Part shown: piece after piece, positions 27,141 through 53,678 of the stretch
Position numbering within the stretch: position 1 is the stretch's first letter
Layout: each line of letters starts with the position of its first letter
NCBI GenBank assembly: GCA_947625645.1
Contig: CANQPE010000002.1
Location: forward strand, 22,981 to 86,980
Source: an uncultured Clostridia bacterium
GTDB taxonomy: Bacteria > Bacillota > Clostridia > TANB77 > CAG-508
Direction of reading: 5' to 3'
Length of the DNA stretch: 64,000 nucleotides
Notes under the pieces: model-generated
The model's database searches: none
Told to the model about the DNA's origin: nothing
What the model saw: the letters and a program-made list of their open reading frames with translations, nothing else
Made by a program: the position numbers and the translations under genes

Positions 27141-27205
27141 GGAACAAATAGGGACGTATCTTTTTTGTCCGTTAGGGACAAAAAAGATACGTCCCTATTT
27201 GTTCC
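27141..27205. repeat. Palindromic repeat element copy 3, short form with CAAATAGG variant arms, inside the spoVA operon
   Basis: ggaacaaatagggacgtatcttttttgtcc / gtta / gggacaaaaaagatacgtccctatttgttcc; lies between the spoVAC stop and spoVAD start. Confidence 0.9.
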
Positions 27206-27221
27206 ATATGTGGTCAAAATT

Positions 27222-27704
27222 TTATACTAAAGTTATACTTTGCGTGTTAAAGATTAAATATACGAGACCGACTAAAATGGAGGCTGAAATGCCAAACACT
27301 AAAACTGGTCCGGCAACGGTGAACATTTTTCCTCCCACACCCATAACATAACCTTCTGATTTGTATTCCATGGCAGGTGAAACAATTGAGTTTGCAAAAC
27401 CTGTGATAGGAATTAAAGAGCCTGCCCCTGCAAACTTACCAATTTTATTAAAGATATTTAATCCAGTTAAAAATGCAGAAATTCCAATTAAAATAATGGA
27501 AACAATTGTCCCGGAAGTGGTAGTGTCTAGACCACGTTGTTTGCAGATATTAGCAATAATTTGACCAATGGTACAGATAAGACCTCCAACCCAAAAAGCA
27601 TTGAAGCAATTTTTTAAAATAGGAGAATTGGGAGATTTTTTATCAACATACTCTTGGTATTTTTGCTTACTTTCAATGGGACTTGAAGAATTTGAATTCA
27701 TCAA
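27222..27704 (-). CDS. spoVAC: Stage V sporulation protein AC
   Basis: SpoVAC/SpoVAEB family membrane protein, ~160 aa. Confidence 0.8.
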   Translation of the reverse strand: MMNSNSSSPIESKQKYQEYVDKKSPNSPILKNCFNAFWVGGLICTIGQIIANICKQRGLDTTTSGTIVSIILIGISAFLTGLNIFNKIGKFAGAGSLIPITGFANSIVSPAMEYKSEGYVMGVGGKMFTVAGPVLVFGISASILVGLVYLIFNTQSITLV

Positions 27705-27922
27705 TTTTCCCCCTTTCGGTTTAAATCTAGAACAAAACTTAAGTCTAAATCGACATAATATTCTGCGATTTTATTACCATCAATTTTTGCATATTGATTT
27801 AAAATTTTAACACTTGATAAATAATCAATTGTTTTGGAAGCTTCTGAAACTGCCTTTACAATAGCATCTTTCCACGAAATGTTTGAGTTCCCAGTAACAT
27901 TTAAGTGTTTTTCTATTTCCAT
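27701..27922 (-). CDS. Dodecin-like small protein, first gene of the spoVA operon (stop overlaps the spoVAC start)
   Basis: HLNVTGNSNISWKDAIVKAVSEASKTIDYLSSVKILN...YYVDLDLSF resembles the dodecin fold. Confidence 0.45.
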   Translation of the reverse strand: MEIEKHLNVTGNSNISWKDAIVKAVSEASKTIDYLSSVKILNQYAKIDGNKIAEYYVDLDLSFVLDLNRKGEN

Positions 27923-28036
27923 AACTTATATCCATCCTTTCTAAGGCAAAAGTGTTTACCTTTACAAAATTTTCTGATAATATTTTTTACCGATTTTTGA
28001 AAAATTATACAAAATTGAATAACAAAATCATTTTTT

Positions 28037-28116
28037 GGACAATTAGGGACGGGACAATTAGGGACGTATCTTTTTTGTCCATCAGGGACAAAAAAGATAC
28101 GTCCCTAATTGTCCCC
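28037..28116. repeat. Palindromic repeat element copy 4, short form with a 14-bp partial left-arm duplication
   Basis: ggacaattagggac + gggacaattagggacgtatcttttttgtcc / atca / gggacaaaaaagatacgtccctaattgtcccc. Confidence 0.9.
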
Positions 28117-28120
28117 AAAA

Positions 28121-28248
28121 AAAAAATAAAAATTTGCACGAAAAAGAAGATTTGAATCGTTTTATCAATGAAAGAGGAAAAAAGACAGCTAAAAGGGGAG
28201 GCATAGAAGAGAAAGTGGAAAACAAAAAAATAAAGGGAGGGATTTTTC
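28121..28248 (+). pseudogene. Remnant of the ECF sigma-factor 5' region (promoter/UTR and first 7 codons), fused to the paralog-1 start
   Basis: About 90% identical to 30494..30612, including a GTGGAAAACAAAAAAATAAAG start remnant that runs into a stop. Confidence 0.6.
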
Positions 28249-30348
28249 ATGAAAATTAGAAGAAAAATTATTGCGATTGCATCCACACTAGCCATTTTAT
28301 TAGGAACAGGAACAGTATATGCAGCACTGGGAGGAACGATTAATGGAGTGCCAGTGCTAGAATGGATGGGAATCAAAGTTTCAAACCAAGAGGTGGAATA
28401 CATACAACCAGTTCAAAATAAAGTTGTAGAAAATGACATAGCAAGAGTGGCATTAGAATCAGCAGTATGTGACGATGGGTATACCATATTGCAATTTAGA
28501 GTAAACTTAAAAGATAAAATTATGCAACAATATCGAGAAGAGACGGAAGAAGGAACGAATGTACCATTTATCAATTTATTATTCAACGATTCCGCCAAAG
28601 ACTTGGTGGAAAAGGGGGAGTATAGTCTAAGCAATTACCATCTTATTGTTAACCAAGATGGTGTAAATATTAGAAATGGAGCAACCGATCAAACCCTTAA
28701 AAGAATATCTGAAAGTGAATATTTAGTAGATCAAGTATGGTTTTTAGATGACACCATTTTAGGAGACCAAGAAACATTTGAAATTACATTAAGAGACATT
28801 GCTATTAGAATGGAAAATGAAGGTTTTATGATAGATGGAAGCATTCAAACTACATTATCTAAAACAGAGGCAATGGAACAGTCAACAGTTATTATACCTG
28901 AAGAAGAAATGACGCTGACACGAGGAAAAATGAAGCATACCCTTGAAAAAGTAACAATAACACCATTACAGAACATTATAGAATTTCAAACGGTATACGA
29001 AGATGTCAATAGAGACGACTTTCAAAATACAATCCATCCATTAAAATATGAGGCATATGACGAAAATGGGGAATACCTATCAACAATGGATATCATTACA
29101 AAAGCAAACATTACTTACGAAGACGGTTCAGAAGAGGAATATGAATTGCAAGACGATTTTTCAGATGATACGTTTGCTAAAGAAACATTTGAACATGCAA
29201 AGTATGAAATTACTAGAAAAATTGCAATTGACCAAACCAATAAAAATGAAACAATCATATTAAAAGCATTCGAAACGATGTTAGAAGAGGGAAGAGAAAA
29301 AAGAGAAGGCATACAACAATATGAAGTGAATTTTGCGAAACAAACCATAAAAAGTCAAGATGAAGTAGAAGAAAATGAGCAAACAGAAAGTGATGTAACA
29401 AAAACAGAAGAGCCAATAGAAAGTGGTGTAGCGACAATAGAAGAGCAAATAAAAACAGAAAAAACGGGAAACATATTGAAAGCAGAAGTAACCCAAATGA
29501 CAATAGGAATAGAAGGTAAAGGCGTAATAGACGTCAAAGACAAAGAAATAATAGAGCAACTTGTAACAACAGTGAATGAAAAAACGCAAGAGTTCAAAAA
29601 TTTTACTGAAATATTTGGAGAAGACGATGGCGGGGCGGCACCTGCATGTCTACAAATTCATTTAGCTAATGGAAAATTTTATTTTATCGGAGTTTGTGAC
29701 AAGTATGTAAAAGATGCTACAGGCCAATATTATAATGTTATGTTCGTTAGTGAATATAATGAAGCAAACCATGAAAATATCATTAGTGATAAAATCTATA
29801 TTGTAGAAACAGAGTTACAAAAACAATTAGACGAATTATATGAACAAGAACGCCAAGCAAGTCAAACCCAGGCACCACAAGTAGAAGAATCTTATGAAGA
29901 GAAACCTAACCTAGAAGAAGCAAGTACAGAGAAAACAGAAATACTTAGCAATGTGGATTACATAAAAGTTAGTATCTTTGAACTAGAAGAAGAAATGGTT
30001 AAAGAAAAGGCTGTTACAATAAGAGACGCAAAAGAAATCAAGCAATTGGTGCAAACCATTAATGAACATGCAAGCCAATATGAAACATTTTTAGAAGACA
30101 TGGGAGCAGGAGACTATTTTGAAGGAACTCCAGCCATAACAGCATATTTAAAGAATGGAAATGAGGTTACTATCATGGCAAAGGATGACTTTGATAAAGA
30201 TAAAAATGGAAAATTTTACAATGTGTTTGCTTATTATGAATATGAAATGGGGGAGGAAATCCGCGCCGTAAAGGATGCATACTATAAGATAGATGTAGAT
30301 TTGCAACATCAAATAGAAGCATTATATCAAAAATATGAGAGAAAATAA
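28249..30348 (+). CDS. Membrane-anchored large extracytoplasmic protein, paralog 1 of the anti-sigma-like protein, lacking the cytoplasmic N-terminal segment
   Basis: Signal-anchor MKIRRKIIAIASTLAILLGTGTVYA; ~90% nucleotide identity to 31190.. over the first several hundred bp; C-terminal tandem ~125-aa domain pair. Confidence 0.7.
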   Translation: MKIRRKIIAIASTLAILLGTGTVYAALGGTINGVPVLEWMGIKVSNQEVEYIQPVQNKVVENDIARVALESAVCDDGYTILQFRVNLKDKIMQQYREETEEGTNVPFINLLFNDSAKDLVEKGEYSLSNYHLIVNQDGVNIRNGATDQTLKRISESEYLVDQVWFLDDTILGDQETFEITLRDIAIRMENEGFMIDGSIQTTLSKTEAMEQSTVIIPEEEMTLTRGKMKHTLEKVTITPLQNIIEFQTVYEDVNRDDFQNTIHPLKYEAYDENGEYLSTMDIITKANITYEDGSEEEYELQDDFSDDTFAKETFEHAKYEITRKIAIDQTNKNETIILKAFETMLEEGREKREGIQQYEVNFAKQTIKSQDEVEENEQTESDVTKTEEPIESGVATIEEQIKTEKTGNILKAEVTQMTIGIEGKGVIDVKDKEIIEQLVTTVNEKTQEFKNFTEIFGEDDGGAAPACLQIHLANGKFYFIGVCDKYVKDATGQYYNVMFVSEYNEANHENIISDKIYIVETELQKQLDELYEQERQASQTQAPQVEESYEEKPNLEEASTEKTEILSNVDYIKVSIFELEEEMVKEKAVTIRDAKEIKQLVQTINEHASQYETFLEDMGAGDYFEGTPAITAYLKNGNEVTIMAKDDFDKDKNGKFYNVFAYYEYEMGEEIRAVKDAYYKIDVDLQHQIEALYQKYERK

Positions 30349-30360
30349 AAAAGTTCTCTC

Positions 30361-30425
30361 GGGACAGTTAGGGACGTATCTTTTTTGTCCATTAGGGACA
30401 AAAAAGATACGTCCCTAATTGTCCC
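30361..30425. repeat. Palindromic repeat element copy 5, short form
   Basis: gggacaGttaggg left arm pairs with a T on the right arm (G·U in RNA); otherwise perfect. Confidence 0.9.
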
Positions 30426-30590
30426 AAACAGACACTAATTTGTTCGAGAGTTCTTGTAAAAAATGTTTACAAAAAAATGCGGAAATGATAAAATAAAAAA
30501 AATAAAAATTTGCACGAAACAGAAAGTTTGAATCGTTTTATAAATGAAAGAGGAAAAAAGGCAATTAAAAGGGGAGGAATAGAAAGGAAA

Positions 30591-31076
30591 ATGGAAAACC
30601 AAAAAATAAAAGAATTAGTAGAAACATATTCAGATATGATTATGAAAATTGCCTATCAAAACAGCTTTAATAAATCAGATAGTGAAGACATTGTTCAAGA
30701 AGTTTTTTTGAAGTTGATGAAAAACATAAACAAATTAGGAGAGGACAACAATTATATAAAGGCATGGCTAATTAGAGTGACAATAAATTTAAGCAAAGAC
30801 TATAACAAAAGCGCTTGGTATAAAAAGGTAAGAGCTATTGAAGAAGATAATCAAGAATATGAGTTTAACTCAGAAGAACAAGATGTTTTAAAGGAACTGG
30901 CAAAATTAAAACCAGTGTACCGAAATACCATTTATTTATACTATTATGAAGGGTACAGGATACATGAAATTGCCAAAATCTTAAATCAAAATGAAAATAC
31001 AGTAAGTTCCAACTTGACAAGAGCAAGAAAACAATTAAAAGGCATCTTAGAAGAAGGAGGTGAGCTGTATGCCTAA
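30591..31076 (+). CDS. ECF-type sigma-70 family RNA polymerase sigma factor
   Basis: Region 2 (DIVQEVFLKL...AWL) and region 4 HTH (IHEIAKILNQNENTVSSNLTRARKQL); stop overlaps the downstream start (ATGCCTAA). Confidence 0.8.
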   Translation: MENQKIKELVETYSDMIMKIAYQNSFNKSDSEDIVQEVFLKLMKNINKLGEDNNYIKAWLIRVTINLSKDYNKSAWYKKVRAIEEDNQEYEFNSEEQDVLKELAKLKPVYRNTIYLYYYEGYRIHEIAKILNQNENTVSSNLTRARKQLKGILEEGGELYA

Positions 31077-33249
31077 CCAATATCATAATGTCATATCAAA
31101 GATAAATTTAGATGAAAGTACCAAAGAAAACCTTATATTGCAGTTAGAACAAAATAAAACCAAAAAAGTGAAGGGAGTACTTTTCATGAAAATTAAAAGA
31201 GCAATGATTGCGATTGTATCAACACTCACCATTTTATTAGGAACAGGAACAGCATATGCAGCACTAGGAGGAACGATTAATGGAGTGCCAATGCTAGAAT
31301 GGATAGGAATCAAATTTTCAAATCAAGAGGGGGAATACATTCAACCAATTCAAAATCAGGTTGTAGAAAATGACGTAGCAAAAGTAGCATTAGAATCAGC
31401 AGTATGTGACGATGGGTTCACCATATTGCAATTTAGAGTAAACTTAAAAGATAAAATCGTGCAACAATATGAAGACGAAATAAACGAAGGCATATATAGC
31501 CCAGCTATCAGTTTATTTTATAATGAATCAGCTAAAATAGCAGGGGAGGGACAATCATTACCATTGGGTACTGATGGAAATCCTATTATTGGAAATCCTA
31601 TTATTGATGGAAATAGTGTAGATATCAGAAATGAAGCAACCGAACAAACCCTCAAAAGAATATCAATAAGTGAATATTTAGTATATCAAGTATGGTTTTT
31701 AGATGAGACTATTTTAGGAGACGAAGAAACATTTGAAATTGAATTAAGAGATATTGCTATCAAGGTGTTAGGAAGAGACGGTTTTAAGATAGATGGAAGT
31801 ATTCAAACTACATTATCTAAAACAGAGGCAATGGAACATTCAAAAGTGATTACACCAAAAGAAGAAATGACAGTGACACGAGGAAAAATGAAGCATACAC
31901 TTGAGAAAGTAACAGTAACACCATTACAAAATATTGTAGAAATCAAAACAGTGTACGAAGATGTCAATAGAGACGATTTTAAAAATACAATTCGTGCATT
32001 GGTATATGAGGCATATTACGATGATATATACAGTTTATCTACAAAGGATATTGTTACAGAATCACGTATTACTTACGAAGACGGCTCAACAGAAGAACAT
32101 GAAGTGCCAGATGTTTTTTTTGAGAATGATATATTTGATAAAGAAACATTTGAACATGCAAAGTATGAAATTACTAGAAAAATTGCAATTGACCAAAGTG
32201 ACAAAAATGAAGCATTCACATTAAAAGTATATGAATATGACTTTAGGGGAGAAGATGAAAGGAAAGAGATAAACGGCATACAACAATATGATATTAATTT
32301 GGTCGAACAAACCATAAAAAGTCAAGATGAAGTGGAAGAAAATGAGCAAATAGAAAATGATGCAACGAAAGTAAAAGAGAAAATAAAAACAGAAAAAACG
32401 GGAAATATATTAGAAGCAGATGTAACCCAAATGATAGTAGGAGTAGAAGGTAAAGGAGAAATAGAAATCAAGAACAAAGAAGTGATAGAGCAACTTGTAA
32501 CAACAGTGAATAAAAACACGCAAGAGTTCAAAAATTATGCTGAAATATTTGGAGAAGATGATGGTGGCGCGTCACCTACATGGATACAGATTCATTTAGC
32601 TGATGGAAAATTTTATTTTATTGCAGCTTGTGATGATTATGTAAAAGATACTGCAGGTAAATATTGGAATCTTATATTTGTTGTTGACGTCAAAGAGCCA
32701 AAAGAAAAATCCATGCAGAAAGTTTATATCATAGAAACAGATTTAGAAAAAACGTTAGACGAATTATATGAACAAGAACGCCAAACAGCAAGTCAAACCC
32801 AAACGCCACAAGTAGAAGAGCCTTCAGAAGATGAGACAGAAATACTTAGCGATGTAGATTACATAGAAATTAGTATCCCCGAACCAGGAGCAGAAAGCTA
32901 TGTACCAAAAACAGCTACGATAAGAGATGAAAAAGAAATCAAGCAATTGGTGCAAACCATTAATGAACATGCAAAACGATATGAGACATTTCTAGAAGAC
33001 GTGGGAGCGGGAGACTATTTTGAAGGGGGAGCAACCGTCATGGCATATTTGAAGAATGGAAATCAGGTTAGTATTACAGCACTTGATCATTTTGATCAAG
33101 ATAAAAATGGAGAATATTACAATGTGTTTAATTATTGTAATTATGAATGGTATGGAAAAATCCTTATCGACAGAAATGCATATTATAAGATAGATGTAGA
33201 TTTGCAACAGCAGATAAAGGAATTATATCAAAGATATGAGGGAGAATAA
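31069..33249 (+). CDS. Putative anti-sigma factor: short cytoplasmic N-terminus, one TM, DUF4179-like proximal ectodomain and a large ectodomain ending in two tandem ~125-aa domains
   Basis: Translationally coupled to the sigma gene; TM MIAIVSTLTILLGTGTAYA; internal repeat EVIEQLVTTVN... / KEIKQLVQTIN... Confidence 0.65.
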   Translation: MPNQYHNVISKINLDESTKENLILQLEQNKTKKVKGVLFMKIKRAMIAIVSTLTILLGTGTAYAALGGTINGVPMLEWIGIKFSNQEGEYIQPIQNQVVENDVAKVALESAVCDDGFTILQFRVNLKDKIVQQYEDEINEGIYSPAISLFYNESAKIAGEGQSLPLGTDGNPIIGNPIIDGNSVDIRNEATEQTLKRISISEYLVYQVWFLDETILGDEETFEIELRDIAIKVLGRDGFKIDGSIQTTLSKTEAMEHSKVITPKEEMTVTRGKMKHTLEKVTVTPLQNIVEIKTVYEDVNRDDFKNTIRALVYEAYYDDIYSLSTKDIVTESRITYEDGSTEEHEVPDVFFENDIFDKETFEHAKYEITRKIAIDQSDKNEAFTLKVYEYDFRGEDERKEINGIQQYDINLVEQTIKSQDEVEENEQIENDATKVKEKIKTEKTGNILEADVTQMIVGVEGKGEIEIKNKEVIEQLVTTVNKNTQEFKNYAEIFGEDDGGASPTWIQIHLADGKFYFIAACDDYVKDTAGKYWNLIFVVDVKEPKEKSMQKVYIIETDLEKTLDELYEQERQTASQTQTPQVEEPSEDETEILSDVDYIEISIPEPGAESYVPKTATIRDEKEIKQLVQTINEHAKRYETFLEDVGAGDYFEGGATVMAYLKNGNQVSITALDHFDQDKNGEYYNVFNYCNYEWYGKILIDRNAYYKIDVDLQQQIKELYQRYEGE

Positions 33250-33260
33250 AAAATTCTCTC

Positions 33261-33325
33261 GGGACAATTAGGGACGTATCTTTTTTGTCCGTTAGGGACA
33301 AAAAAGATACGTCCCTAATTGTCCC
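33261..33325. repeat. Palindromic repeat element copy 6, short form
   Basis: Perfect arms, loop gtta; lies between the paralog-2 stop and rsmB start. Confidence 0.9.
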
Positions 33326-33353
33326 TCGGCCAGAAAAAAAGGAGGAAGAAAAA

Positions 33354-34676
33354 GTGATTGATAAAGTCAGAGAAGTAGCACTGAAGGTGCTGTATAAAGT
33401 TGATAAGGAGAAAGCATTTTCTAATCTTGTGCTAAATCAGGAGATAAAAGATACGAAAAAAAATGGAGTGCAACTTACACCACGTGATGTGGGTCTCATT
33501 TCAGAGATTGTGTATGGCGTAACCAATTGGAGACTGACCATTGATCATATCATTGAAACATATGCAACAATCAAATTGAAAAAAATTTCGCCTTGGATTA
33601 TGAATATTTTAAGAATGGGAATTTATCAAATTGTATGGTTAGATAAAATTCCAAAATCTGCCGCAGTGAATGAAAGCGTTAATTTGGCAAAACGTTATGG
33701 TCATAGTGGCAGTGCTAGATTTGTCAATGCAATTTTACACAAAATAACAAAAGAGGATTATCATAAAATGACACAAATTGCAGATAATAAACAAAGAATT
33801 TCACTTATGTATGCAATGCCAATGTGGATAGTAGAACAATTACTAAAAGAAAGAAAAACAATAAAAGAAGTAGAAACCATTTGCCAAGAACTAACACAAA
33901 GACCAACGCTTACAATTAGAAGAAATCAATTAAAAATTCAAAAAAAGGAATTTGAAGAACAACTCACCAAGGCACAAATCATATTTGAAAATAGTACGAT
34001 TAATCCAGATTTTTATTACATAAAAAATATGAAACAAATAGAAGAATTGGAGTTATTCCAAAAAGGGTACATGACAGTGCAAGATGTATCTGCTGGACTA
34101 GCAGCATGGTATTTGGAACCAAAACCTGGGGAGACTATTTTAGATGCATGTAGTGCACCAGGCGGGAAAACAACCTATTTAGCAGAAATAATGGGAAACC
34201 AAGGAAAGATAGAAGCATGGGATATATACCCACACAGAACAAAATTAATTCAAGAAAATGCCAAAAGATTAGGAATTACAATCATACACACAAAAGAGCA
34301 AGATGCAAGCATATACCATCCAGAATATAACGAAGCATTTGATAAAATTTTATTAGATGTCCCTTGCATGGGAATTGGTGTTATCAAACGAAAACCAGAT
34401 ATTAAATGGCAAAAAAGACCAGAAGATATACCAGAAGTGACGAAACTACAAGAACAAATCATAACGGCATGTGCCAACTATCTAAAAAAGGGAGGGCAAT
34501 TGATTTATTCTACATGTAGCATATTGGAAGAAGAAAATCAAAAAGTAGTACAGAAATTTCTAAAAAAACACACAGAATTTTTTGCAGAAGAACTTGTTTC
34601 AGAACAAAAAATGTTACAAATTCTCCCAAAAAATGAACAAGATGGATTTTTTATAGCAAAATTGGTAAAAAAATAA
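33354..34676 (+). CDS. rsmB: 16S rRNA (cytosine-C5) methyltransferase RsmB/Sun with N-terminal NusB-like domain
   Basis: NusB-like N-terminus, SAM-binding DxCSAPGGKT, PCMG and TCS catalytic Cys motifs; GTG start after AGGAGG; the ORF-track start at 33285 runs through the repeat. Confidence 0.85.
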   Translation: MIDKVREVALKVLYKVDKEKAFSNLVLNQEIKDTKKNGVQLTPRDVGLISEIVYGVTNWRLTIDHIIETYATIKLKKISPWIMNILRMGIYQIVWLDKIPKSAAVNESVNLAKRYGHSGSARFVNAILHKITKEDYHKMTQIADNKQRISLMYAMPMWIVEQLLKERKTIKEVETICQELTQRPTLTIRRNQLKIQKKEFEEQLTKAQIIFENSTINPDFYYIKNMKQIEELELFQKGYMTVQDVSAGLAAWYLEPKPGETILDACSAPGGKTTYLAEIMGNQGKIEAWDIYPHRTKLIQENAKRLGITIIHTKEQDASIYHPEYNEAFDKILLDVPCMGIGVIKRKPDIKWQKRPEDIPEVTKLQEQIITACANYLKKGGQLIYSTCSILEEENQKVVQKFLKKHTEFFAEELVSEQKMLQILPKNEQDGFFIAKLVKK

Positions 34677-40643: not shown

Positions 40644-40644
40644 C

Positions 40645-45359: not shown

Positions 45360-45457
45360 GGGACAATTAGGGACGTTTCTTTTTTGTCCCTCAGGAACAA
45401 TTGGGGACAGACCTTTGGAGCATGGGGGACAAAAAAGAAACGTCCCTAATTGTCCCC
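45360..45457. repeat. Palindromic repeat element copy 7, long form (cgtttc arm variant, 35-nt internal insert)
   Basis: gggacaattagggacgtttcttttttgtccc ... gggacaaaaaagaaacgtccctaattgtccc; the insert contains a half-site-like ggaacaattgggga. Confidence 0.85.
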
Positions 45458-45475: not shown

Positions 45476-46399
45476 ATGAAGGAAGAGAAAAAGGCTACGC
45501 GCCAAAGCTATGGAGAGGCGTTAGTAGATTTGGGAAAACAAAATCCGAATATTGTTGTATTAGATGCAGATTTAGCAAGTGCCACAAAAACAGAATTGTT
45601 TGCCAAGGCATATCCTGACCGTTTTTTTGATATGGGAATTGCGGAAGCAGATATGATGTCAACCGCTGCAGGAATGGCCACTTGTGGCAAAATTCCATAT
45701 GCAAGTACATTTGCTATGTTTGCCGCAGGAAGGGCATATGACCAAATACGAAATAGTATTTGTTACCCAGAATTACCAGTTAAAATTTGTGCAACCCATG
45801 CAGGAATTACCGTAGGGGAAGATGGAGCAACCCATCAAATGATAGAAGACCTATCTTTAATGCGTACATTACCCAATATGACAGTTTTGTCAGTAAGTGA
45901 TGATGTACAAACAAAGTGGGCTGTAAAGGAAATAGCAAATTTACAAGGTCCAGTATATTTACGTTTATCTCGATTAGCAACCAATGTGCTATATGAAGAA
46001 AATCAAGTATTTGAAATTGGAAAAGCTGTGCAATGGGGCAATGGAACAGACGGTACCATTTTTAGTACAGGTGTGACAGTGGCCGAAAGTCTAAAGGCAC
46101 AAGAGCAGTTAGAACAAAAAGGAATCCATGTCAGAGTGGTAGATATGCATACCATAAAGCCAATTGATAAAGATATGATTATTAAGGCGGCAAAAGAAAC
46201 AAAACGCCTTGTTTCTGTAGAAGACCATAATGTGATAGGAGGTTTAGGTAGTGCAATAGCAGAAGTTTTAACAGAATATGAACCCAAACATTTTATTCGA
46301 TTGGGTATTCCAGATACCTTTGGAAAATCTGGAAAAGCAGTGGAATTGATGAAATTTTTTGGCATCACAGCAGATAATATTATGAAGCAGTGGAGCTAG
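45476..46399 (+). CDS. Transketolase C-terminal subunit (pyrimidine-binding and C-terminal domains), orphan
   Basis: IAEADMMSTAAGMATCGKIPYASTFAMFAAGRAYDQIRNSI; no N-terminal TPP-binding subunit gene adjacent; the ORF-track start at 45401 runs through the repeat. Confidence 0.8.
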   Translation: MKEEKKATRQSYGEALVDLGKQNPNIVVLDADLASATKTELFAKAYPDRFFDMGIAEADMMSTAAGMATCGKIPYASTFAMFAAGRAYDQIRNSICYPELPVKICATHAGITVGEDGATHQMIEDLSLMRTLPNMTVLSVSDDVQTKWAVKEIANLQGPVYLRLSRLATNVLYEENQVFEIGKAVQWGNGTDGTIFSTGVTVAESLKAQEQLEQKGIHVRVVDMHTIKPIDKDMIIKAAKETKRLVSVEDHNVIGGLGSAIAEVLTEYEPKHFIRLGIPDTFGKSGKAVELMKFFGITADNIMKQWS

Positions 46400-46462
46400 G
46401 GACAATTAGGGACGTATCTTTTTTGTCCCAATTGGACAAAAAAGATACGTCCCTAATTGTTC
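46399..46462. repeat. Palindromic repeat element copy 8, short form
   Basis: Arms as in the family, loop aatt; starts at the last base of the tkt stop codon. Confidence 0.9.
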
Positions 46463-46488
46463 CAAAATAGAAAGGATGGGAATGAAAA

Positions 46489-46906: not shown

Positions 46907-47593
46907 ATGATAGAGTTTAGAAATGTAAGTAAAACATACGATACAGGCACAGATGCCGTAAAAAATGCAAACTTTATAATTGAAAAAGGAGAGTTTGCGT
47001 TTTTAGTAGGTACCTCAGGAAGTGGAAAATCAACGTTAATTAAACTCATATTAAAAGAAGAAGAACCAACATCAGGAAATATCATTATTAATGGAAAGGA
47101 TACTACCTATTTGAAACCAAGCCGAATCCCATATTTAAGAAGAAGTATGGGCGTGGTTTTTCAAGACTTTAGGCTATTGCCAGATAAAACGGTATATGAC
47201 AATGTGGCATATGCAATGTATATTGTAAGAGCAACGCCGAGACACATAAGAAGGCAAGTACCAATGATATTATCTATGGTGGGGTTGAGTCATAAAGCAA
47301 AAATGTATCCCAATGAATTATCTGGAGGAGAACAACAAAGAGTAGCGCTTGCCAGGGCGTTAGTCAATTCTCCCTCTATGTTGATTGCAGATGAGCCAAC
47401 AGGAAATCTAGACCCAGAAACAGCATGGGACATTATGACATTATTAAATGAAATTAATATGAGGGGAACAACCGTTGTTGTGGCAACACATGCGAAAGAT
47501 ATCGTTGATAAAATGAAAAAAAGAGTGATCCATATTCAAAATGGCAATATCGTACGAGATGACAAAAAAGGTGGGTATGATTATGAAATATAA
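46907..47593 (+). CDS. ftsE: Cell-division ABC transporter ATP-binding protein FtsE
   Basis: Walker A GTSGSGKST, LSGGEQQR signature, Walker B LIADEPTGNLD. Confidence 0.9.
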   Translation: MIEFRNVSKTYDTGTDAVKNANFIIEKGEFAFLVGTSGSGKSTLIKLILKEEEPTSGNIIINGKDTTYLKPSRIPYLRRSMGVVFQDFRLLPDKTVYDNVAYAMYIVRATPRHIRRQVPMILSMVGLSHKAKMYPNELSGGEQQRVALARALVNSPSMLIADEPTGNLDPETAWDIMTLLNEINMRGTTVVVATHAKDIVDKMKKRVIHIQNGNIVRDDKKGGYDYEI

Positions 47594-48503
47594 CATATTA
47601 GGATATTTAATAGGTGAAGGGTTCAGCAATGTCTTTAAAAATAAAAAATCAACAGGTGCCTCATTAGTCATTATGTGTGCAACAATGATTATTTTTGGTG
47701 TTTTTCTTATTTTAGGAGAGAACATCAACCATTTTGTTGATGATATCAAATCAGAACAAGGCTTTCAGGTGTTTATTAAAGTAGATGCCACGCAAGAAGA
47801 AATTGAAAAGTTTGGAGAAGATATTAGGAGCATACCAGGTGTTAGCACAGCAGAATTTATTTCAAAAGAAGATGGTCTCAACAGAATGAAGGAACGATTA
47901 AAAGATGATAAAGGTGTATTAGATGGTTTTAATGTAGAGGCGTTTCGTGCATCTTATATGGTAAAAATCACAGACCTAGAACAAAGTCAACAAATACAAG
48001 AGCAAATTAAGAAAATTGAAAACTATGTTAGAATTACAAGTAGTGATGAAACCATAACGGCGTTGGTTCGTTTGGCAAATGGTATACGCATTTTTACAGG
48101 TGCTATTTTATTGTTATTAATCATAATTTCTATTTTCATCATTTCAAATACCATTAAGTTAACAGTACACGCAAGAAGAAAAGAAATATCGATTATGAAA
48201 TATGTAGGAGCAACCAATAACTTTATTCGTTGGCCTTTTATTGTAGAAGGTATGATTATTGGAGTTATTTCTAGTGCCATTTCCATTGCGATTGTAGGCG
48301 GGGCATATAACTTTATTGCAACAGAGCTAGTGAATGCATCTTTCATGAAAATGATAGGGATGAGTTTAGTTGGCTTTAGTGAAATGCTATCTTCTATTAT
48401 AGTGGTGTATATGCTATTAGGAATTGGAATTGGTGCCATCCGGAAGTGTTATTTCTATGAGGAAATATTTAAAAGTATAAAGGAGTTTGGTAGCTATGCG
48501 TAA
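47583..48503 (+). CDS. ftsX: Cell-division permease FtsX
   Basis: Four TM helices with a large extracellular loop; start overlaps the ftsE end. Confidence 0.8.
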   Translation: MKYNILGYLIGEGFSNVFKNKKSTGASLVIMCATMIIFGVFLILGENINHFVDDIKSEQGFQVFIKVDATQEEIEKFGEDIRSIPGVSTAEFISKEDGLNRMKERLKDDKGVLDGFNVEAFRASYMVKITDLEQSQQIQEQIKKIENYVRITSSDETITALVRLANGIRIFTGAILLLLIIISIFIISNTIKLTVHARRKEISIMKYVGATNNFIRWPFIVEGMIIGVISSAISIAIVGGAYNFIATELVNASFMKMIGMSLVGFSEMLSSIIVVYMLLGIGIGAIRKCYFYEEIFKSIKEFGSYA

Positions 48504-49779
48504 GATTTTATGTATGGTACTCATTTGCTTGTTATGTTTTGGCATGTCATTTGTAGAGGCAGTCGATAGTGAAAATGCAGTAGGAAATACAACGGCAAAT
48601 GCAACCGATTTGCAAAAGACGCAACAAGAAATGCAAGAACAAATTCAGCAGGCAAACGAAGAGCTTTCCGTCATACAGTTAGATATTACGGAAAACATTG
48701 AGCAAGTGCAAAAATTAGATGAAAAAATAGAAGCAGCAGAAGCTGAACTAGCAACAACATCAGAACAAGCGCAAGTTTTGCAACAGACAATCCAGGGATT
48801 GGAAGAAACACAAAAAACAGAACAAGAAAAATATGATAAACAAAAAGAATTATTTGAAGAACGTGTTGTCGCATTATATGAAGCTGGAGATACACAATAT
48901 TTAGATGTATTACTACACTCTGAAAATGTAACAGATTTTATTTCTAGTTACTTTATTATATCAGAAATTGCAGATTATGATGCAGATATTTTAAATACAA
49001 TTGGCGAAAGAAAACATAATATTGAAATTACAAAAACAAAGCTAGAAAAACAAAAAGAACAATTGGCAATCATTGTAGAAAAACGAACCAGAACAGCAAA
49101 GGTCTTACAAACCACAAAATTACTAAGGGAAAATTATATTTCAAAATTATCTGAACAAGAAAAACAAACACAGGAGAAAATTGAAGCCTATCATCAGGCA
49201 TTAAAAGAAGTGAATCAGCAAATGATTGAACTGGCTAAACAAGGGCTTGAGACAGCATATATAGGCGGCGAGCTAGCATGGCCAGTGCCAGGCTATACGC
49301 AAATTAGTTCCAAATATGGGATGAGAGTTCATCCTATCACAAAAGTGTATAAATTACATACCGGTGTAGATATTTCTGCACCAATGGGAGCAAATTTTGT
49401 TGCTGCCAATGACGGAATCGTAATAAAAGCGGGGTACAACAGTGCTTATGGTAACATGGTTGTAATTGACCATGGAGGTGGAATTTCCACATTATATGCA
49501 CATGGTTCTCAAATTTTAGTGCAAGTGGGAGAGCAAGTGACAAGAAACCAAGCCATTTTAAAAGTAGGGTCAACAGGCTATTCAACAGGACCACATGCAC
49601 ATTTTGAGGTAAGAAAGCAAGGTGTTGTTACAAACCCAATGCCATATATTACGAGTGGACTTGTACCAAATTCTGAAGAAGATAAAGCTGAAAAGGAAAA
49701 TCAAACCAAAGAAAATGCAGTACAAAATAATACTGTGGAAGAAAATATGGTGGTACAAAATACAAATCAAAATGGGTAA
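48496..49779 (+). CDS. Coiled-coil M23 peptidase (EnvC/PcsB-like, FtsEX-associated)
   Basis: Signal peptide, long coiled coil, C-terminal M23 domain HTGVDISAP...DHGGGISTLYAHGS...GPHAHFE. Confidence 0.8.
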   Translation: MRKILCMVLICLLCFGMSFVEAVDSENAVGNTTANATDLQKTQQEMQEQIQQANEELSVIQLDITENIEQVQKLDEKIEAAEAELATTSEQAQVLQQTIQGLEETQKTEQEKYDKQKELFEERVVALYEAGDTQYLDVLLHSENVTDFISSYFIISEIADYDADILNTIGERKHNIEITKTKLEKQKEQLAIIVEKRTRTAKVLQTTKLLRENYISKLSEQEKQTQEKIEAYHQALKEVNQQMIELAKQGLETAYIGGELAWPVPGYTQISSKYGMRVHPITKVYKLHTGVDISAPMGANFVAANDGIVIKAGYNSAYGNMVVIDHGGGISTLYAHGSQILVQVGEQVTRNQAILKVGSTGYSTGPHAHFEVRKQGVVTNPMPYITSGLVPNSEEDKAEKENQTKENAVQNNTVEENMVVQNTNQNG

Positions 49780-49829
49780 AATTTGTGCTACATAGGGATG
49801 ATATTACACTAGAAAGGAAAGGTAAGCCA

Positions 49830-51098
49830 ATGAGAATCTTAGGAAAAAAAATACTAGGGATGCTTTTAATTATGATGATAATAAGTTGGACGAATGTTGT
49901 GTTGGCATTGGATGAAACAGCTTTAAACAATCAAAAAGAGAACAATAATCAAAAAATACAGGAAACAGAAGCAGAAAAAGAAAAGGTGCAAGAGTTAAAA
50001 AGTGAGACGGTAAAGCAAGTAGAAGAATTAGACAGCCAAATTGATGAATATCAAAGTCAAATTAGTAGTTTGGATGGTCAAATTGCAGAAGCAAATACGA
50101 AAATTCAAGAAACAACAGCGAAATTAGAACAAGCACAAAAAGATTATGAAAATCAACAAAAAATGTTGGAAGAGAGAGTGGTTGCTTTATATGAAGCAGG
50201 AGAAACTACGTATTTAGATGTGTTGTTGTCTTCAGAGAGTGTGACAGATTTTATTTCTAGTTATTATGTCATTTCTGAAATTGCACAATGTGATGTTGAT
50301 TTATTGAATGAAATTGACTTCAAGAAAAAGGAAATAGAGACAACGAAACAAGAGTTAGAAGCAAGTAAAAATCAGTTAACATCAGCCAGAACAAATAAAA
50401 AATTAGTTGCTTCTCAATTAGAAGCCACCAAAACAGAAAAGCAAAATAAAGTGGCACAGTTATCTGAACAAGAGCAACAATTGCAAGCTCAAATTGATGA
50501 AATCAAAAAAGATAATGTTTCAATTGACCAACAAATTCAATCATATAAAGCAGAGTTAAAGCGTAAAATGGAAGAAGAGTTACGAAGAAGAAAACAACAA
50601 GAGGAAGAAGAAGCCAGAAGAAGGAAAAGTGAAGCTAACGCGGGAGGGGGCACTACTTCAAGCGGTTCTTCAGGGACAACCACCGGAACCAGTTCAAGTG
50701 GATTTATCCATCCCGTGCCATCTGCATATGCTACAGTCACGACGAAATGGTATTATTCAAATGGAAGTGTTCATGGCGCAGTAGATTATGGCTCTGGCGG
50801 AATTGCTGGTCAACCAGTTTATGCGGTGGCAGATGGCATTGTGGCGCAAACCGCTGCACTTACAACAAGTTATGGTAATTATATAATTATTATGCATTAT
50901 AATGGTTTATATACATTATATGCACATGGGCAACAGGGGTCGATTACGGTTTCAAAGGGGCAACCGGTCAAACAAGGGCAACAAATTATGAAAGTAGGAA
51001 GTTCAGGGAATTCTACAGGACCACATTTACACTTTGAAGTCAGAACAGATCCAGGGTTGTACAGCAACCGAAAAAATCCATTAAATTATTTGCCATAG
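49830..51098 (+). CDS. Coiled-coil M23 peptidase, tandem paralog with G/S/T-rich linker
   Basis: Same architecture; M23 motifs HGAVDY...GPHLHFE. Confidence 0.8.
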   Translation: MRILGKKILGMLLIMMIISWTNVVLALDETALNNQKENNNQKIQETEAEKEKVQELKSETVKQVEELDSQIDEYQSQISSLDGQIAEANTKIQETTAKLEQAQKDYENQQKMLEERVVALYEAGETTYLDVLLSSESVTDFISSYYVISEIAQCDVDLLNEIDFKKKEIETTKQELEASKNQLTSARTNKKLVASQLEATKTEKQNKVAQLSEQEQQLQAQIDEIKKDNVSIDQQIQSYKAELKRKMEEELRRRKQQEEEEARRRKSEANAGGGTTSSGSSGTTTGTSSSGFIHPVPSAYATVTTKWYYSNGSVHGAVDYGSGGIAGQPVYAVADGIVAQTAALTTSYGNYIIIMHYNGLYTLYAHGQQGSITVSKGQPVKQGQQIMKVGSSGNSTGPHLHFEVRTDPGLYSNRKNPLNYLP

Positions 51099-51194
51099 GT
51101 ATTGACAAACAAAACATAAAATATGATATAATAGGAGGCGGAACTTCTTCCGCCTAATTTGTTTTAGGTGGGGGACAAGAAAGGATGAGGAAAT

Positions 51195-52412
51195 TTGGAA
51201 AAACATACTGTATATAAAGTTTATAGAACGATTATGCTCATTATCATTACTGCTTTTGTGACATTTATGTTAACAACGGTTGGGATATATGCTTATATCA
51301 AAAATGATGGCAACTTGTTTTTGGTGAACAAACAAGAAATTGGTGGCATTACTTCAGAATTATATACATACAAAAACATTATTGATCAATATTATCTAGG
51401 AGAAGTGGATGAAGAAAAATTAGAAGAAGGTGCTATACGAGGCTATATAGAAGGACTAGGAGATCCCTATACAGAGTATATTTCAGAAGAAGAAATGGAA
51501 GATTATATGCAAGACACCTTAGGAAACTACGTAGGTATTGGTGTGTATATGGCAAAAGACAAAGAAACAAACTACGTAAAAATTATATCATTTATAGAAA
51601 ATTCACCTGCAGAAAAAGCAGGGCTTTTAGTGGGCGATTTTATTGTTGGATTGGACGATAAAACTTATACAGCAGATGAGATGGATGAATTATCTGATGA
51701 CATCAAAGGGGAAGAAGGCACGAAAGTAAAATTGACCATTTTAAGAGGAACAGATACAAAAGAATTTACAGTAAAAAGAGAAAAAATCAAAGTAAACCCA
51801 GTAGAAGGAAAAATCTTAGAAGAGAATATTGGTTACATTGCATTTACATCTTTTGATGAGACGACAGCAGAAGATTTTAAGGAGAAATATGACGAATTAA
51901 GAGCAGAAGGCATGCAGTATTTAATTATGGATTTAAGAAATAATGGTGGAGGGCTTGTTGACCAAGCCTTAAAAATTGCAGACTATATTGCGGAAAAGGG
52001 CAGTGTTTTATTATATGAAGTGGATAAGAAAGGAAACGAAGAAATTGAAAAATCTAAAAATGATCCAATTGTTAATGTTCCTGTCTGCATTTTGACCAAT
52101 AAAAATACAGCAAGTGCGTCTGAAATACTAGTAGGAGCATTACAAGATTTAAAAAAAGCTAAAATTGTAGGAACCACAACCTATGGCAAAGGTATCATAC
52201 AAGAAATATTATCTGTAAAAGACAGTGGAGGCATTAAAATTACAACACAAGAATATCAAACGCCAAACCATCATAAAATTCATAAAGTGGGAATTGAACC
52301 AGATGAGAAAGTTGAATTACCAAAAGATGTAGGAAATGTATTAACGGTGCCAGAAGAAAAAGATACCCAACTAAACAAAGCAAAAGAAGTAGTTAAAAAG
52401 ATTGAAACATAG
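51195..52412 (+). CDS. ctpA: Carboxyl-terminal processing protease (S41 family) with PDZ domain
   Basis: PDZ (GDFIVGLD), S41 catalytic region (MDLRNNGGGL, TASASEI); TTG start. Confidence 0.8.
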   Translation: MEKHTVYKVYRTIMLIIITAFVTFMLTTVGIYAYIKNDGNLFLVNKQEIGGITSELYTYKNIIDQYYLGEVDEEKLEEGAIRGYIEGLGDPYTEYISEEEMEDYMQDTLGNYVGIGVYMAKDKETNYVKIISFIENSPAEKAGLLVGDFIVGLDDKTYTADEMDELSDDIKGEEGTKVKLTILRGTDTKEFTVKREKIKVNPVEGKILEENIGYIAFTSFDETTAEDFKEKYDELRAEGMQYLIMDLRNNGGGLVDQALKIADYIAEKGSVLLYEVDKKGNEEIEKSKNDPIVNVPVCILTNKNTASASEILVGALQDLKKAKIVGTTTYGKGIIQEILSVKDSGGIKITTQEYQTPNHHKIHKVGIEPDEKVELPKDVGNVLTVPEEKDTQLNKAKEVVKKIET

Positions 52413-52439
52413 CATGTTTAATCTAGGGAGGAACAGAGT

Positions 52440-53048
52440 ATGAATTTAGCAAATAAACTAACAATTTTTCGTGTCATTCTTGTACCGATTATGGTAATTG
52501 TGCCATTTTTGGGAATTGAGGGAAAATTGTATGGAATTCCTATTGCCAATCTAGTTATGGATTTGATATTTATCATTGCTTCTATTACAGATAAATTAGA
52601 TGGTTATATTGCAAGAAAAAAGAATCAAATAACAACGTTTGGAAAATTTTTAGACCCATTGGCAGATAAAATACTTGTATTAGCAGCAATGTTATTGTTA
52701 GTAGAAATGCAAAAATTGCCTGCTTGGATTCCGATTATTGTATTATCAAGAGAATTTATTGTATCAGGGTATCGATTGGTTGCAGTAGAGAGAGGTAAGG
52801 TCATTGCAGCGTCTAAGTGGGGCAAATTAAAAACGGTGACACAAATGGTAGCTATCATTTTGGCATTTTTAGATACGTATGCCTATGGAGAGTGCTTCTT
52901 AGGATTATTACGAGGTTCAGATTTTGTGTTAAACTTAATTGTCACTGTGATGATGATCATTCAAACTATTGCTACCATATTTTCTGGAATTGATTATGTA
53001 AAAGATGGAAGAAAATTATTTTTTCAAAAAATGTTGACAAAAAGATAA
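52440..53048 (+). CDS. pgsA: CDP-diacylglycerol--glycerol-3-phosphate 3-phosphatidyltransferase
   Basis: CDP-alcohol phosphatidyltransferase motif DKLDGYIARKKNQITTFGKFLDPLADK. Confidence 0.85.
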   Translation: MNLANKLTIFRVILVPIMVIVPFLGIEGKLYGIPIANLVMDLIFIIASITDKLDGYIARKKNQITTFGKFLDPLADKILVLAAMLLLVEMQKLPAWIPIIVLSREFIVSGYRLVAVERGKVIAASKWGKLKTVTQMVAIILAFLDTYAYGECFLGLLRGSDFVLNLIVTVMMIIQTIATIFSGIDYVKDGRKLFFQKMLTKR

Positions 53049-53096
53049 ATGAGATTTAATATAGTATATAAAGTTTGAAAGGAAGGATGATAAAAC

Positions 53097-53573
53097 ATGG
53101 AAGATAAAGAAGTGATTTTAACACAAGAAGGGTATGATAATTTAGAAAAACAATTAAATATTCTAAAAACAGAAAAAAGAGCAGAAATTGCAGAAAGAAT
53201 TAAAGTGGCATTAGGGTTTGGAGATTTATCCGAAAACTCAGAATATGATGAAGCAAAAACAGCACAGGCAGAAAATGAAGTAAAAATTGTAGAATTAGAA
53301 AATAAATTAAGACATGCGAAAATCATTGATGAAAAAGATATCGATACAGAAACGGTTCAAATTGGTAATGTGGTTAGAGTCAATGATTTAGAATTTAACG
53401 AAAAAATAGAATACACCATTGTAGGTTCAACAGAAGTCAACTTAGCAGAAAACAAGATTTCAAATGAATCGCCACTAGGTGCAGCATTGCTAGGCGCTAA
53501 GAAAAACCAAGTTGTAGAAGTCAATGCCCCAGCAGGCATCATGAAATACAAAATTTTATCTATCAAAAAATAA
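53097..53573 (+). CDS. greA: Transcription elongation factor GreA
   Basis: N-terminal coiled coil with the acidic tip DLSENSEYD; C-terminal FKBP-like domain. Confidence 0.9.
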   Translation: MEDKEVILTQEGYDNLEKQLNILKTEKRAEIAERIKVALGFGDLSENSEYDEAKTAQAENEVKIVELENKLRHAKIIDEKDIDTETVQIGNVVRVNDLEFNEKIEYTIVGSTEVNLAENKISNESPLGAALLGAKKNQVVEVNAPAGIMKYKILSIKK

Positions 53574-53581
53574 GGAAAAAT

Positions 53582-53678
53582 GGGACAATCAGGGACGGTT
53601 CTTTTTTGTCCCTCAAGAGCAATTGGAGCTAGACCTTTGAGGCTTGAGGGACAAAAAAGAACCGTCCCTGATTGTCCC
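53582..53678. repeat. Palindromic repeat element copy 9, long form (caatcaggg/cggttc variant with compensated arms)
   Basis: 36-bp perfect arms gggacaatcagggacggttcttttttgtccctcaag / cttgagggacaaaaaagaaccgtccctgattgtccc; between convergent greA and deoD. Confidence 0.85.

Follow-up and report, generated by a model that had tools for sequence, protein, structure and literature searches.

Analysis of the window, a 64-kb chromosome segment of a low-GC, spore-forming Clostridia, indicated that its intergenic palindromes are probably REPIN-like elements, each composed of two inverted, inward-facing REP units of about 31 nt of the RAYT type. They would belong to a type of selfish DNA that is already known but has scarcely been described in this group. 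The window contains ten such palindromes: seven measure 65 nt, and the other three 97-98 nt. They hold 20 REP-like units, all intergenic and all arranged in the ten inverted doublets, which corresponds to one doublet per 6 kb. A census of the window with model R1 recovered exactly the 20 arms, at 33.9-48.1 bits, and the next best match scored 15 bits. The first-pass annotation covered doublets 3-9 (27141-53678); doublets 1, 2 and 10 are located outside this range. The features are as follows.

19007..19071, doublet 1, short (65 nt): two inverted 31-nt REP-like units, both arms matching R1 (45.4 and 42.7 bits)
21039..21103, doublet 2, short: one-sided changes at pair 1 (G.T) and pair 3 (A.C)
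27141..27205, doublet 3, short: two both-arm pair changes, GGAACA/TGTTCC and AAATA/TATTT
28037..28050, plus strand: one-sided partial duplication of the unit's first 14 nt, GGACAATTAGGGAC, abutting doublet 4
28051..28115, doublet 4, short: consensus arms
30361..30425, doublet 5, short: one-sided G (GGGACAG) facing T at pair 7
33261..33325, doublet 6, short: consensus arms, directly upstream of RsmB
45360..45456, doublet 7, long (97 nt): arms with GTTTC/GAAAC
46399..46463, doublet 8, short: one-sided G.T at pair 3
53582..53678, doublet 9, long (97 nt): arms with ATCAG/CTGAT and GGTTC/GAACC
58941..59038, doublet 10, long (98 nt): arms with GGTTC/GAACC, the central 30 nt a degenerate unit

In the short doublets the arms are separated by a 5-nt loop. 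In doublet 1 pairing extends over 32 nt and leaves a 1-nt loop. The middle of doublet 7 (29 nt, 45394-45422) is a degenerate third unit on the plus strand, GGAACAATTGGGGACAGACC. The arms of doublet 9 are complementary at 100% over 36 nt, and its central 25 nt are also a degenerate unit. Folded as single-stranded DNA, a doublet has a predicted energy of -35 kcal/mol (z = -15.9). The genomic settings are diverse. Doublet 1 has convergent genes on either side and overlaps the stop of a minus-strand GTPase gene, and some 20 nt separate doublet 2 from the serS start downstream of it. Doublet 3 occupies the SpoVAC-SpoVAD spacer inside the spoVA operon, and doublet 4 lies in the spacer that separates the dodecin/SpoVAC operon from a divergently oriented DUF4179 gene. 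The flanks of doublets 5 and 6 are paralogous, indicating a segmental duplication. The first G of doublet 8 completes the TAG stop of the gene upstream of it.

The two arms of a doublet match each other closely. Across the ten doublets, 299 of the 300 cells in the 30-nt arms pair (99.7%). Five pairs, in 8 cells, are changed on both arms, which was reached by none of 500 shuffles, and the number of both-arm pair changes drops to 0-1 when the partner is slid by 1-3 columns. The first-pass annotation had proposed that arm variants are compensated on the opposite arm. The five mirrored pairs bear this out, but there are also four one-sided changes, and the covariation signal is mostly subfamily structure. 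Among its examples, CAAATAGG/CCTATTTG in doublet 3, CGTTTC/GAAACG in doublet 7 and CGGTTC/GAACCG in doublets 9 and 10 are all present, while CAATCAGGG/CCCTGATTG occurs in doublet 9 but is absent from doublet 10. It had described the G of doublet 5 as the single unpaired change, still able to pair as G.U in RNA. This G does face T, and the pair is G.U on the presumed transcribed strand. It is not the only such change, since doublet 2 carries two and doublet 8, inside the range of that annotation, one; the 14-nt duplication next to doublet 4 is one-sided as well.

Arms within a doublet differ at 4 positions in total, compared with 17.6 expected with random partners (permutation p = 5e-4, all ten doublets); for the seven short doublets alone the same permutation is not significant (p = 0.17). 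Pairs 17 and 18 (TA, TT or GT) set the three long doublets apart from the short ones. Independent compensated events are few, at most five. A G-to-A change at pair 3 is found in 4 of the 20 arms, as one homodimer and two heterodimers, close to random assortment. Between short doublets, divergence is 0.035 per site in the arms versus 0.55 per site in the 5-nt loops, a difference of about 16-fold. Recent transposition of whole doublets does not by itself account for this contrast; selection on the arms, homogenisation of the arms or separate formation of doublets is needed.

Each arm is itself a hairpin of about 31 nt, in which a 7-bp stem (GGGACAA/TTGTCCC) closes a 17-nt loop; within the loop, an invariant GGGACG precedes NNNC and a T-run. 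Exact stems of at least 7 bp surround GGGACG at 47 of 103 sites, versus 2.8% of random positions. The pairing register is constant in nearly all stem families. About ten stem types (GGGAC, GTCC, CTGCC, TTGCC, GGAACG, GGTCA, GGGAA, CGTTTG and others) covary around the fixed core; the stem covariation score is 0.529, whereas shuffles give 0.153 and slid partners 0.12-0.26. An inner GGG/YCT mini-stem is compatible with pairing in 94% of cases, mostly through G.T, and shows no covariation since its Gs never vary. In related uncultured Clostridia the unit is found solo, in tandem or inverted. A metagenome scan with TAGGGACGNNTCTTTTTTGTCC returned three matches, all by chance and in high-GC contigs, BLAST of one long doublet against plasmids and phages gave no match, and a literature search by sequence strings gave unrelated primer matches only. 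Other candidate roles for the conserved motifs were considered and rejected. The spacing is wrong for an ECF-sigma promoter (GGAAC...CGTC), and no supporting evidence was obtained for a CsrA-type GGA loop, a K-turn or a restriction/methylation site (GGGAC).

Spacers that carry a doublet in one genome are empty in others. Neither the SpoVAC-SpoVAD nor the RsmB-dodecin spacer holds a doublet in loci L054 and L061, whereas both are occupied in L057 and the window, by different stem families; the comparison is between different species whose exact junctions are not alignable. The doublet in the SpoVAC-SpoVAD spacer of L057-L060 belongs to a different stem family from doublet 3. The best SpoVAD relative of the window protein is 89% identical. 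The window doublets have no target-site duplication: direct repeats in their flanks do not exceed 2 nt. Insertion without such duplication is what Y1-type elements would be expected to show.

Examination of other Clostridia revealed that GGGAC-core units are associated with RAYT genes. No Y1/RAYT gene was found within the 64-kb window, so the link between the palindromes and RAYTs is one of family membership. At locus L023, ORF 1316-2080(-) matches Pfam Y1_Tnp at 50.4 bits (cut-off 23) and NCBIfam NF047646, REP-associated tyrosine transposase, at 82.9 bits (cut-off 80). Its sole PDB relative is 4er8, the E. coli TnpA-REP. This gene is flanked by inverted GGGACG units. The homologous RAYT genes of C. 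aceticum, a Clostridiaceae MAG and Tissierellales are each located between inward-facing GGGACGGTTCTT units, and two of these three loci read GGGACGGTTCTTTT, the core of window doublets 9 and 10. At L078 a unit is found 65 nt upstream of the RAYT gene, on the upstream side only. Downstream of the RAYT gene at L076 is a perfect palindrome whose apex carries GGGGACAGTCCCC; the palindromes there have the GGGAC core without the exact GGGACG. In all, inward-facing GGGAC-core hairpins are present on both sides of the RAYT gene at 4 of 6 independent Clostridia loci, and this orientation is that of the two arms in the window doublets. Model R1, built without the RAYT loci, gives borderline matches to the units adjoining RAYT genes (E 0.016-0.73). 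The Clostridia RAYTs are about 252 aa long, with an extra C-terminal part that has weak helix-turn-helix matches, and related RAYT genes are single-copy with conserved neighbors.

The shared GGGAC core and the inward arrangement around RAYT genes suggest that the window palindromes are REPIN-like doublets. The first-pass annotation had offered mobilization of REPs by IS200/IS605-type enzymes, with the hairpin copied from one arm, as one origin of the matched arms. The REP connection is upheld at the family level, as the GGGACG core and the stem register match those of RAYT-flanking units, but nothing indicates copying of one arm from the other. Its second proposal, that the structure is under selection, is compatible with the REPIN model; selection acting at the RNA level is weakly supported.

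In the REPIN model the whole doublet moves as one single strand. The IS200/IS605 transposases and E. coli TnpA-REP suggest, by analogy, how the window doublets might move. A cognate RAYT, presumably encoded elsewhere in this organism's genome, would recognize the units once folded as single strands, and would then cleave single-stranded DNA and join it again. Excision, copying or movement would involve the doublet as a whole, by a single-strand mechanism. The subfamilies are a short TATC form and long TTTC and GTTC forms, and each shows its variants on both arms, probably because the two arms descend together. Asymmetric doublets would probably stay put and found no new copies, which amounts to a putative selection for doublet symmetry. 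The four one-sided changes may be mutations that followed insertion.

We considered whether selection on RNA could keep the hairpin instead, as a 3'-end stabilizer or bidirectional terminator with arm changes compensated in place. Several observations fit this explanation. For seven of the ten doublets, the distance from the preceding stop codon to the doublet start is 0-16 nt. All three internal one-sided changes (doublets 5 and 8, and pair 3 of doublet 2) are G.U on the presumed transcribed strand, as judged from the orientation of flanking genes, with a chance probability of 0.125. Two units at orthologous positions in L026 and L037 match at 62 of 62 nt, whereas their flanks are about 85-90% identical. 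L018 and L035, about 92% identical throughout, give no contrast between units and surroundings. However, the arm sequence itself is conserved, beyond what pairing would explain. No U-tract follows the stems, the flanks beyond the full stem are not T-rich, and a terminator scan flags only inner-stem parses of doublets 2 and 3, so we rejected an intrinsic terminator. Doublet 4 is located in a divergent promoter spacer and doublet 3 within an operon. Solo units in relatives are found in both orientations relative to flanking genes, which argues against a strand-specific RNA role. Rfam 15 has no family at the gathering score, and below it only generic long-hairpin microRNA models. The same core also flanks RAYT genes. 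We therefore consider selection on RNA unlikely to be the explanation, although an RNA role could be secondary and exapted.

Slightly less likely still is correction between the arms of one element, by template switching or by mismatch repair in an extruded hairpin, in which a mutation on one arm is reverted or copied across. It is well established that quasipalindromes undergo correction by template switching, and such a process would account both for mirrored variants private to one doublet (pair 8 of doublet 3, pair 9 of doublet 9) and for the strong conservation of arms relative to loops. Yet the four one-sided changes and the one-sided duplication remain uncorrected, and doublets in relatives are sometimes heterodimeric or imperfect (L011, L008). 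The largest part of the signal, at pairs 17 and 18, consists of TTTC and GTTC variants already common among the solo units of relatives, indicating descent of subfamilies. The arms could also be terminal inverted repeats of a DDE-type insertion sequence, alike since one transposase binds both ends as double-stranded DNA, which would make the doublets ordinary MITEs. A 320-bp palindromic element with units at both termini (L003, 7069-7386) and inverted units 1 kb apart that bracket a gene (L026, L036 and L037) resemble such elements. We rejected these 1-kb pairs as ends of an insertion sequence, because the bracketed gene, as in L026, encodes a membrane protein and not a transposase. No insertion sequence with matching ends was found in any locus examined, and target-site duplications are lacking. 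Recognition of double strands leaves the stem covariation around a fixed core unexplained, and the enzyme genes flanked by such units are Y1 RAYTs. The MITE explanation is thus very improbable.

If the REPIN-like reading is correct, the GGGACG-loop hairpins may constitute an undescribed REP superfamily of Clostridia, a proposal we make tentatively and hold somewhat less likely than its opposite. It would be defined by a motif in the loop in place of a 5' GTAG, by RAYTs with an extra C-terminal domain, and by dense REPIN populations in some small low-GC gut Clostridia. REPIN-RAYT systems have been studied as long-lived, vertically inherited replicators, almost entirely in Proteobacteria and Cyanobacteria. 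The clostridial family would widen their known range and be the first such system to be documented in Firmicutes. Abundant repeats would then also be linked with a RAYT group regarded as not REP-associated; abundant REPs have been reported only for RAYT groups 2 and 3 (PMC5581495). The loop tag with freely varying stems would provide a natural stem-swap series for how a Y1 enzyme reads a hairpin. For annotation, the family would explain the dense 65-nt palindromes in MAGs of gut Clostridia, which are likely to break assemblies and could pass for terminators or small RNAs.

Several known repeat systems share features with the window doublets. Correia, RUP, BOX and ERIC elements, which are of the MITE type, are similarly small and intergenic with hairpin potential, but they carry terminal inverted repeats of DDE insertion sequences and usually target-site duplications, neither of which is found here. 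The subterminal hairpins of IS200/IS605 elements are likewise recognized as single strands by a Y1 HUH enzyme, without the usual terminal inverted repeats or target-site duplication. In those elements both ends have direct orientation on a single strand, and the transposase gene enclosed by them is mobilized along with them, whereas the window units are inverted and gene-free.

In CGTC-tagged REPs (Di Nocera, De Gregorio and Rocco 2013, PMC3733652), one end carries the CGTC tag in unpaired form, followed by a stem of 8-9 bp that closes a loop of 4-5 nt, and then by a short tail. They were found in five phyla, Firmicutes not among them, and were reported as lacking a link to tyrosine transposase genes (PMC3733652). 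The reverse complement of our core is CGTCCC, and both kinds of unit are small, intergenic and mostly in inverted dimers, with no transposase beside the copies. In the Clostridia units, however, CGTC is inside the 17-nt loop of a 7-bp stem, and GGGACG units flank RAYT genes.

The closest resemblance is to the REPIN, REP and BIME systems with their RAYTs, as in P. fluorescens SBW25 and the REPtrons of E. coli. Differences are evident in the unit, which has no 5' GTAG at either end, a stem of only about 7 bp and the invariant GGGACG in a 13-19-nt loop. The host is a member of Clostridia, whereas the key REP/RAYT literature covers Proteobacteria, Cyanobacteria and others, and the E. coli RAYT, at 165 aa, is shorter than those of Clostridia. 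In both systems, short intergenic hairpin units form inverted pairs that fold into a long hairpin, the spacer is less conserved than the units, target-site duplication is absent, and several stem families surround one motif. In REPtrons, units of the same type are placed in inverted orientation around a single-copy RAYT gene (PMC3333891). Compensatory changes across the REPIN hairpin have been reported to be common (PMC3116915), and the mirrored arm changes of the window doublets are thus an already reported property of REPINs.

The palindromes in the window are built from a 30-nt arm, GGGACAATTAGGGACGTATCTTTTTTGTCC, which occurs 20 times at three or fewer mismatches, where none is expected by chance. 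Without exception, the arms are arranged as inverted pairs, giving ten doublets (start positions in the window):

19007, doublet 1, short
21039, doublet 2, short
27141, doublet 3, short
28051, doublet 4, short, with a one-sided 14-nt duplication at 28037-28050
30361, doublet 5, short
33261, doublet 6, short
45360, doublet 7, long, with a plus-strand insert at 45394-45422
46399, doublet 8, short
53582, doublet 9, long, with a plus-strand insert at 53618-53642
58941, doublet 10, long, with a plus-strand insert at 58975-59004

The seven short doublets measure 65 nt, of which 5 nt form the loop. In the three long ones, of 97-98 nt, a degenerate third unit sits between the arms. All ten doublets lie in intergenic DNA, and seven start no more than 16 nt past an upstream stop codon. 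A covariance model of the unit, R1, matches all 20 window arms and nothing more: the arms score 33.9-48.1 bits, and everything else 15 bits or less. This segment of the genome contains doublets only. The inserts of the long copies resemble a degenerate third unit (AATTGGGGACAGACCTTTG and variants), and R1 does not recognise them. A GGGACAGAYC variant seen in these inserts also adjoins units in two of the fetched loci, L003 and L057. The doublets all lie between 19 and 59 kb, and none is found in window 1-19000 despite similar gene density. A separate, unrelated inverted repeat is located at 8355-8423, with 32-nt arms that are 91% complementary.

The window has a G+C content of about 32% and a positive GC skew throughout. 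It encodes SpoVAC/AD/AEB, SerS, RsmB and an ECF sigma factor, indicating that it is part of the chromosome of a spore-forming Clostridia lineage. Among 5.8 billion proteins, the SpoVAD closest to its own, at 89% identity, is from uncultured gut Clostridia.

Species-representative genomes were searched with the one-arm pattern GGGACGNNTCTTTTTTGTCC. The element was found in several uncultured low-GC Clostridia MAGs, mostly as a solo unit and at times in tandem or inverted. A listing of every GGGACG site in the low-GC loci revealed the grammar of the unit: a stem X, 1-4 nt, GGGACG, NNNC, a T-run or A-run, and finally the reverse complement of X. Of 103 GGGACG sites, 47 have an exact stem of 7 bp or more, compared to 2.8% of random positions, which is the unbiased figure for the stem. 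The pairing register is common to nearly all stem families. About ten stem types surround the invariant core, including GGGAC/GTCCC, GTCC/GGAC, CTGCC/GGCAG, TTGCC/GGCAA and GGAACG/CGTTCC; further types around GGGACG are GGTCATTTT/AAAATGACC, GGGAA/TTCCC, CGTTTG/CAAACG and others. In 36 units, two-sided changes are found at all outer pairs. These units, which were selected for pairing, have a covariation score of 0.529; shuffles score 0.153, and slid partners give 0.12-0.26. In a doublet in L011, each unit keeps its own stem where the long hairpin is interrupted, so the unit stem is the conserved feature.

Larger and smaller repeats accompany some units. L003 contains a 320-bp palindromic element (7069-7386) with arms of about 85 nt, a terminator-like hairpin at the centre and no ORF. 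At the start of each arm is a GGGACG unit whose stem is of the GAAACG/CGTTCC family, and a GGGACAGACC variant comes next. Units of the GGGAA/TTCCC family (L057 8900-9080 and 11500-11625; L054 11019-11651) lie amid several copies of a short motif, TTTCCCTAT, which may represent an independent small repeat or the remains of unit stems.

Our analysis also linked the units to RAYT (REP-associated tyrosine transposase) genes. Six-frame ORFs of all fetched loci were searched with E. coli RayT. The single match is in L023, a Bacillota MAG contig retrieved by the repeat pattern. The 254-residue ORF (1316-2080) scores 50.4 bits with Pfam Y1_Tnp (cut-off 23) and 82.9 bits with NCBIfam NF047646, REP-associated tyrosine transposase (cut-off 80). 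Its sole PDB relative is E. coli TnpA-REP (4er8), and the alignment covers the H-hydrophobic-H motif and the YIxxNP tyrosine region. Two inverted GGGACG units flank the gene, with the same pairing register as the window arms. Homologues of about 252 residues are widespread in Clostridia and carry the JGI name REP element-mobilizing transposase RayT.

Five more RAYT loci were fetched. Inward-facing units bracket the RAYT gene in C. aceticum, a Clostridiaceae MAG and Tissierellales, for example AACACAgaGGGACGgttcttTTGTGTT upstream and its inverted partner downstream. Two of these three loci have the core GGGACGGTTCTTTT, which is also the core of window copies 9 and 10; the C. aceticum core is GGGACGGTTCTTCT, and the RAYT there is encoded at CP009687 174082-174840. 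In L078 a unit is located 65 nt upstream of the RAYT gene, and in L076 a perfect palindrome with GGGGACAGTCCCC at its apex follows the gene. From base composition, an exact GGGACG is estimated to fall by chance within 100 nt, on one given strand, in about 0.8% of cases, so the four loci with GGGACG on both sides of a RAYT gene are not due to chance. R1, built without these loci, matches units beside RAYT genes at 15.7-29.8 bits. Each of these RAYT genes is present in a single copy, with neighbours that stay the same from sample to sample, as is typical of RAYTs in general. The 64-kb window contains no RAYT gene. Relative to each other, the arms of a window doublet are oriented like the pair of units that flanks a RAYT gene. 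The doublet is therefore a REPtron (a RAYT gene flanked by its inverted REP units) from which the gene is missing, and a REPIN is defined in just this way.

The Clostridial RAYTs (about 252 residues; L023 1316-2080 and homologues P0121-P0240) are longer than E. coli RayT (165 residues), and the additional 100 residues at the C-terminus match helix-turn-helix families weakly (HTH_23, Sigma70_r4_2). Contigs of just 1-3 kb carry many of the genes, as would happen if assemblies broke at the flanking repeats. A gene for a PD-(D/E)XK 'Rpn-type' nuclease/transposase (Pfam PDDEXK_2) adjoins RAYT in two independent loci (L023 2311-3177; L078 9065-9923, and 299-1166 in L079, the same place in another sample). 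A RhuM-family gene is on the other side in L023.

In the alignment of the ten window copies, 99.7% of 300 stem cells are paired. Two-sided changes occur at five pairs (eight cells), a number reached by none of 500 shuffles; with the partner slid, only 0-1 pairs show such a change. Summed over the doublets, the two arms differ at four positions, versus 17.6 expected if partners are drawn at random (p = 5e-4). Restricted to the seven short copies, the test gives p = 0.17, so most of the arm-matching signal separates subfamilies. Long copies have TTTC or GTTC where short copies have TATC, and these long-form variants are the common ones in related genomes. Independent compensated events number at most five. 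Four of the 20 arms carry G-to-A at pair 3, and the one homodimer for this change is close to the expectation under random assortment. The first-pass annotation, whose range takes in copies 3 to 9, described arm variants compensated on the opposite arm. The variants it quoted are present, with CAATCAGGG/CCCTGATTG restricted to copy 9 rather than shared by 9 and 10. Its 'single unpaired change' in copy 5 is one of four one-sided changes, with one in copy 8, inside the same range, and two in copy 2. A private G-to-T on one arm in L060 is likewise not mirrored.

Compensatory changes across the REPIN hairpin were reported to be common by Bertels and Rainey (PMC3116915), so mirrored arm variants are a known property of such elements. 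E. coli TnpA-REP and IS200/IS605 enzymes bind and cleave folded single-stranded hairpins (PMC3333891, PMC8266576). By analogy, a RAYT would act on single-stranded DNA, recognising the hairpin of the unit with its GGGACG loop, and a doublet would be processed as a whole. The two arms would then descend together, producing mirrored subfamily variants, and one-sided changes would build up in resident copies. Per-site differences among the short copies are 0.035 in the arms versus 0.55 in the 5-nt loops, so the arms are constrained or homogenised and not merely young. The arms may be kept alike either by selection for hairpin symmetry or by correction of one arm from the other in an extruded hairpin. 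The elements may have a secondary role at the RNA level: each of the three internal one-sided changes reads G.U on what, judging by the orientation of the flanking genes, is the transcribed strand. However, no U-tract follows the stem, and solo units of relatives occur in both orientations.

Comparison with related loci shows gain or loss of elements, with different families reaching the same spacers. L054 and L061 have no element in either the SpoVAC-SpoVAD or the RsmB-dodecin spacer. Between SpoVAC and SpoVAD, L057-L060 have a doublet with a GGTCA stem, and the window has doublet 3, with a GGGAC stem; the RsmB-dodecin spacer is occupied in L057 and the window. Window doublets have no target-site duplication. 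Two orthologous units in L026 and L037 agree at 62 of 62 nt, with about 85-90% identity in their flanks.

Doublets 1 and 9 have both flanks in common (aaaat/element/tagct; 19002-19076 and 53577-53683) yet belong to different subfamilies. The 5-nt flank AGCTA ahead of GGGAC recurs on the right of copies 1 and 9 and the left of copy 8 (46394-46399), which may reflect a target preference or a unit longer than drawn. At copies 8 and 9, TA of the flank and the first G of the unit form the TAG stop of the adjoining gene; at copy 1 the ORF continues into the arm to a TAG at 19061-19063. About 5 kb of the window (28249-33249) is missing at the same place in L054, L057 and L061, where RsmB adjoins the dodecin-SpoVAC operon. 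This region encodes two paralogous DUF4179 proteins (699 and 729 residues) and an ECF sigma factor, and is punctuated by doublets 4, 5 and 6. The gene ends that precede doublets 5 and 6 are nearly identical (ttctctc), suggesting that one arose by segmental duplication rather than insertion.

The GGGACG elements fit the REP/REPIN definition on unit, doublet and, at the family level, RAYT association. Firmicutes are unmentioned in the papers on REP/RAYT systems that were consulted, and our literature search found no paper joining REPIN, RAYT and Firmicutes. The GTAG tag of REPs is absent from the GGGACG units. The units also do not fit the grammar of the CGTC-REPs (Di Nocera et al.), which have a terminal tag and a 4-5-nt loop; Firmicutes are not among the listed hosts of CGTC-REPs, and no transposase link was found for these repeats. 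We rate the Clostridial element as being of a known kind, with its recognition motif placed differently.
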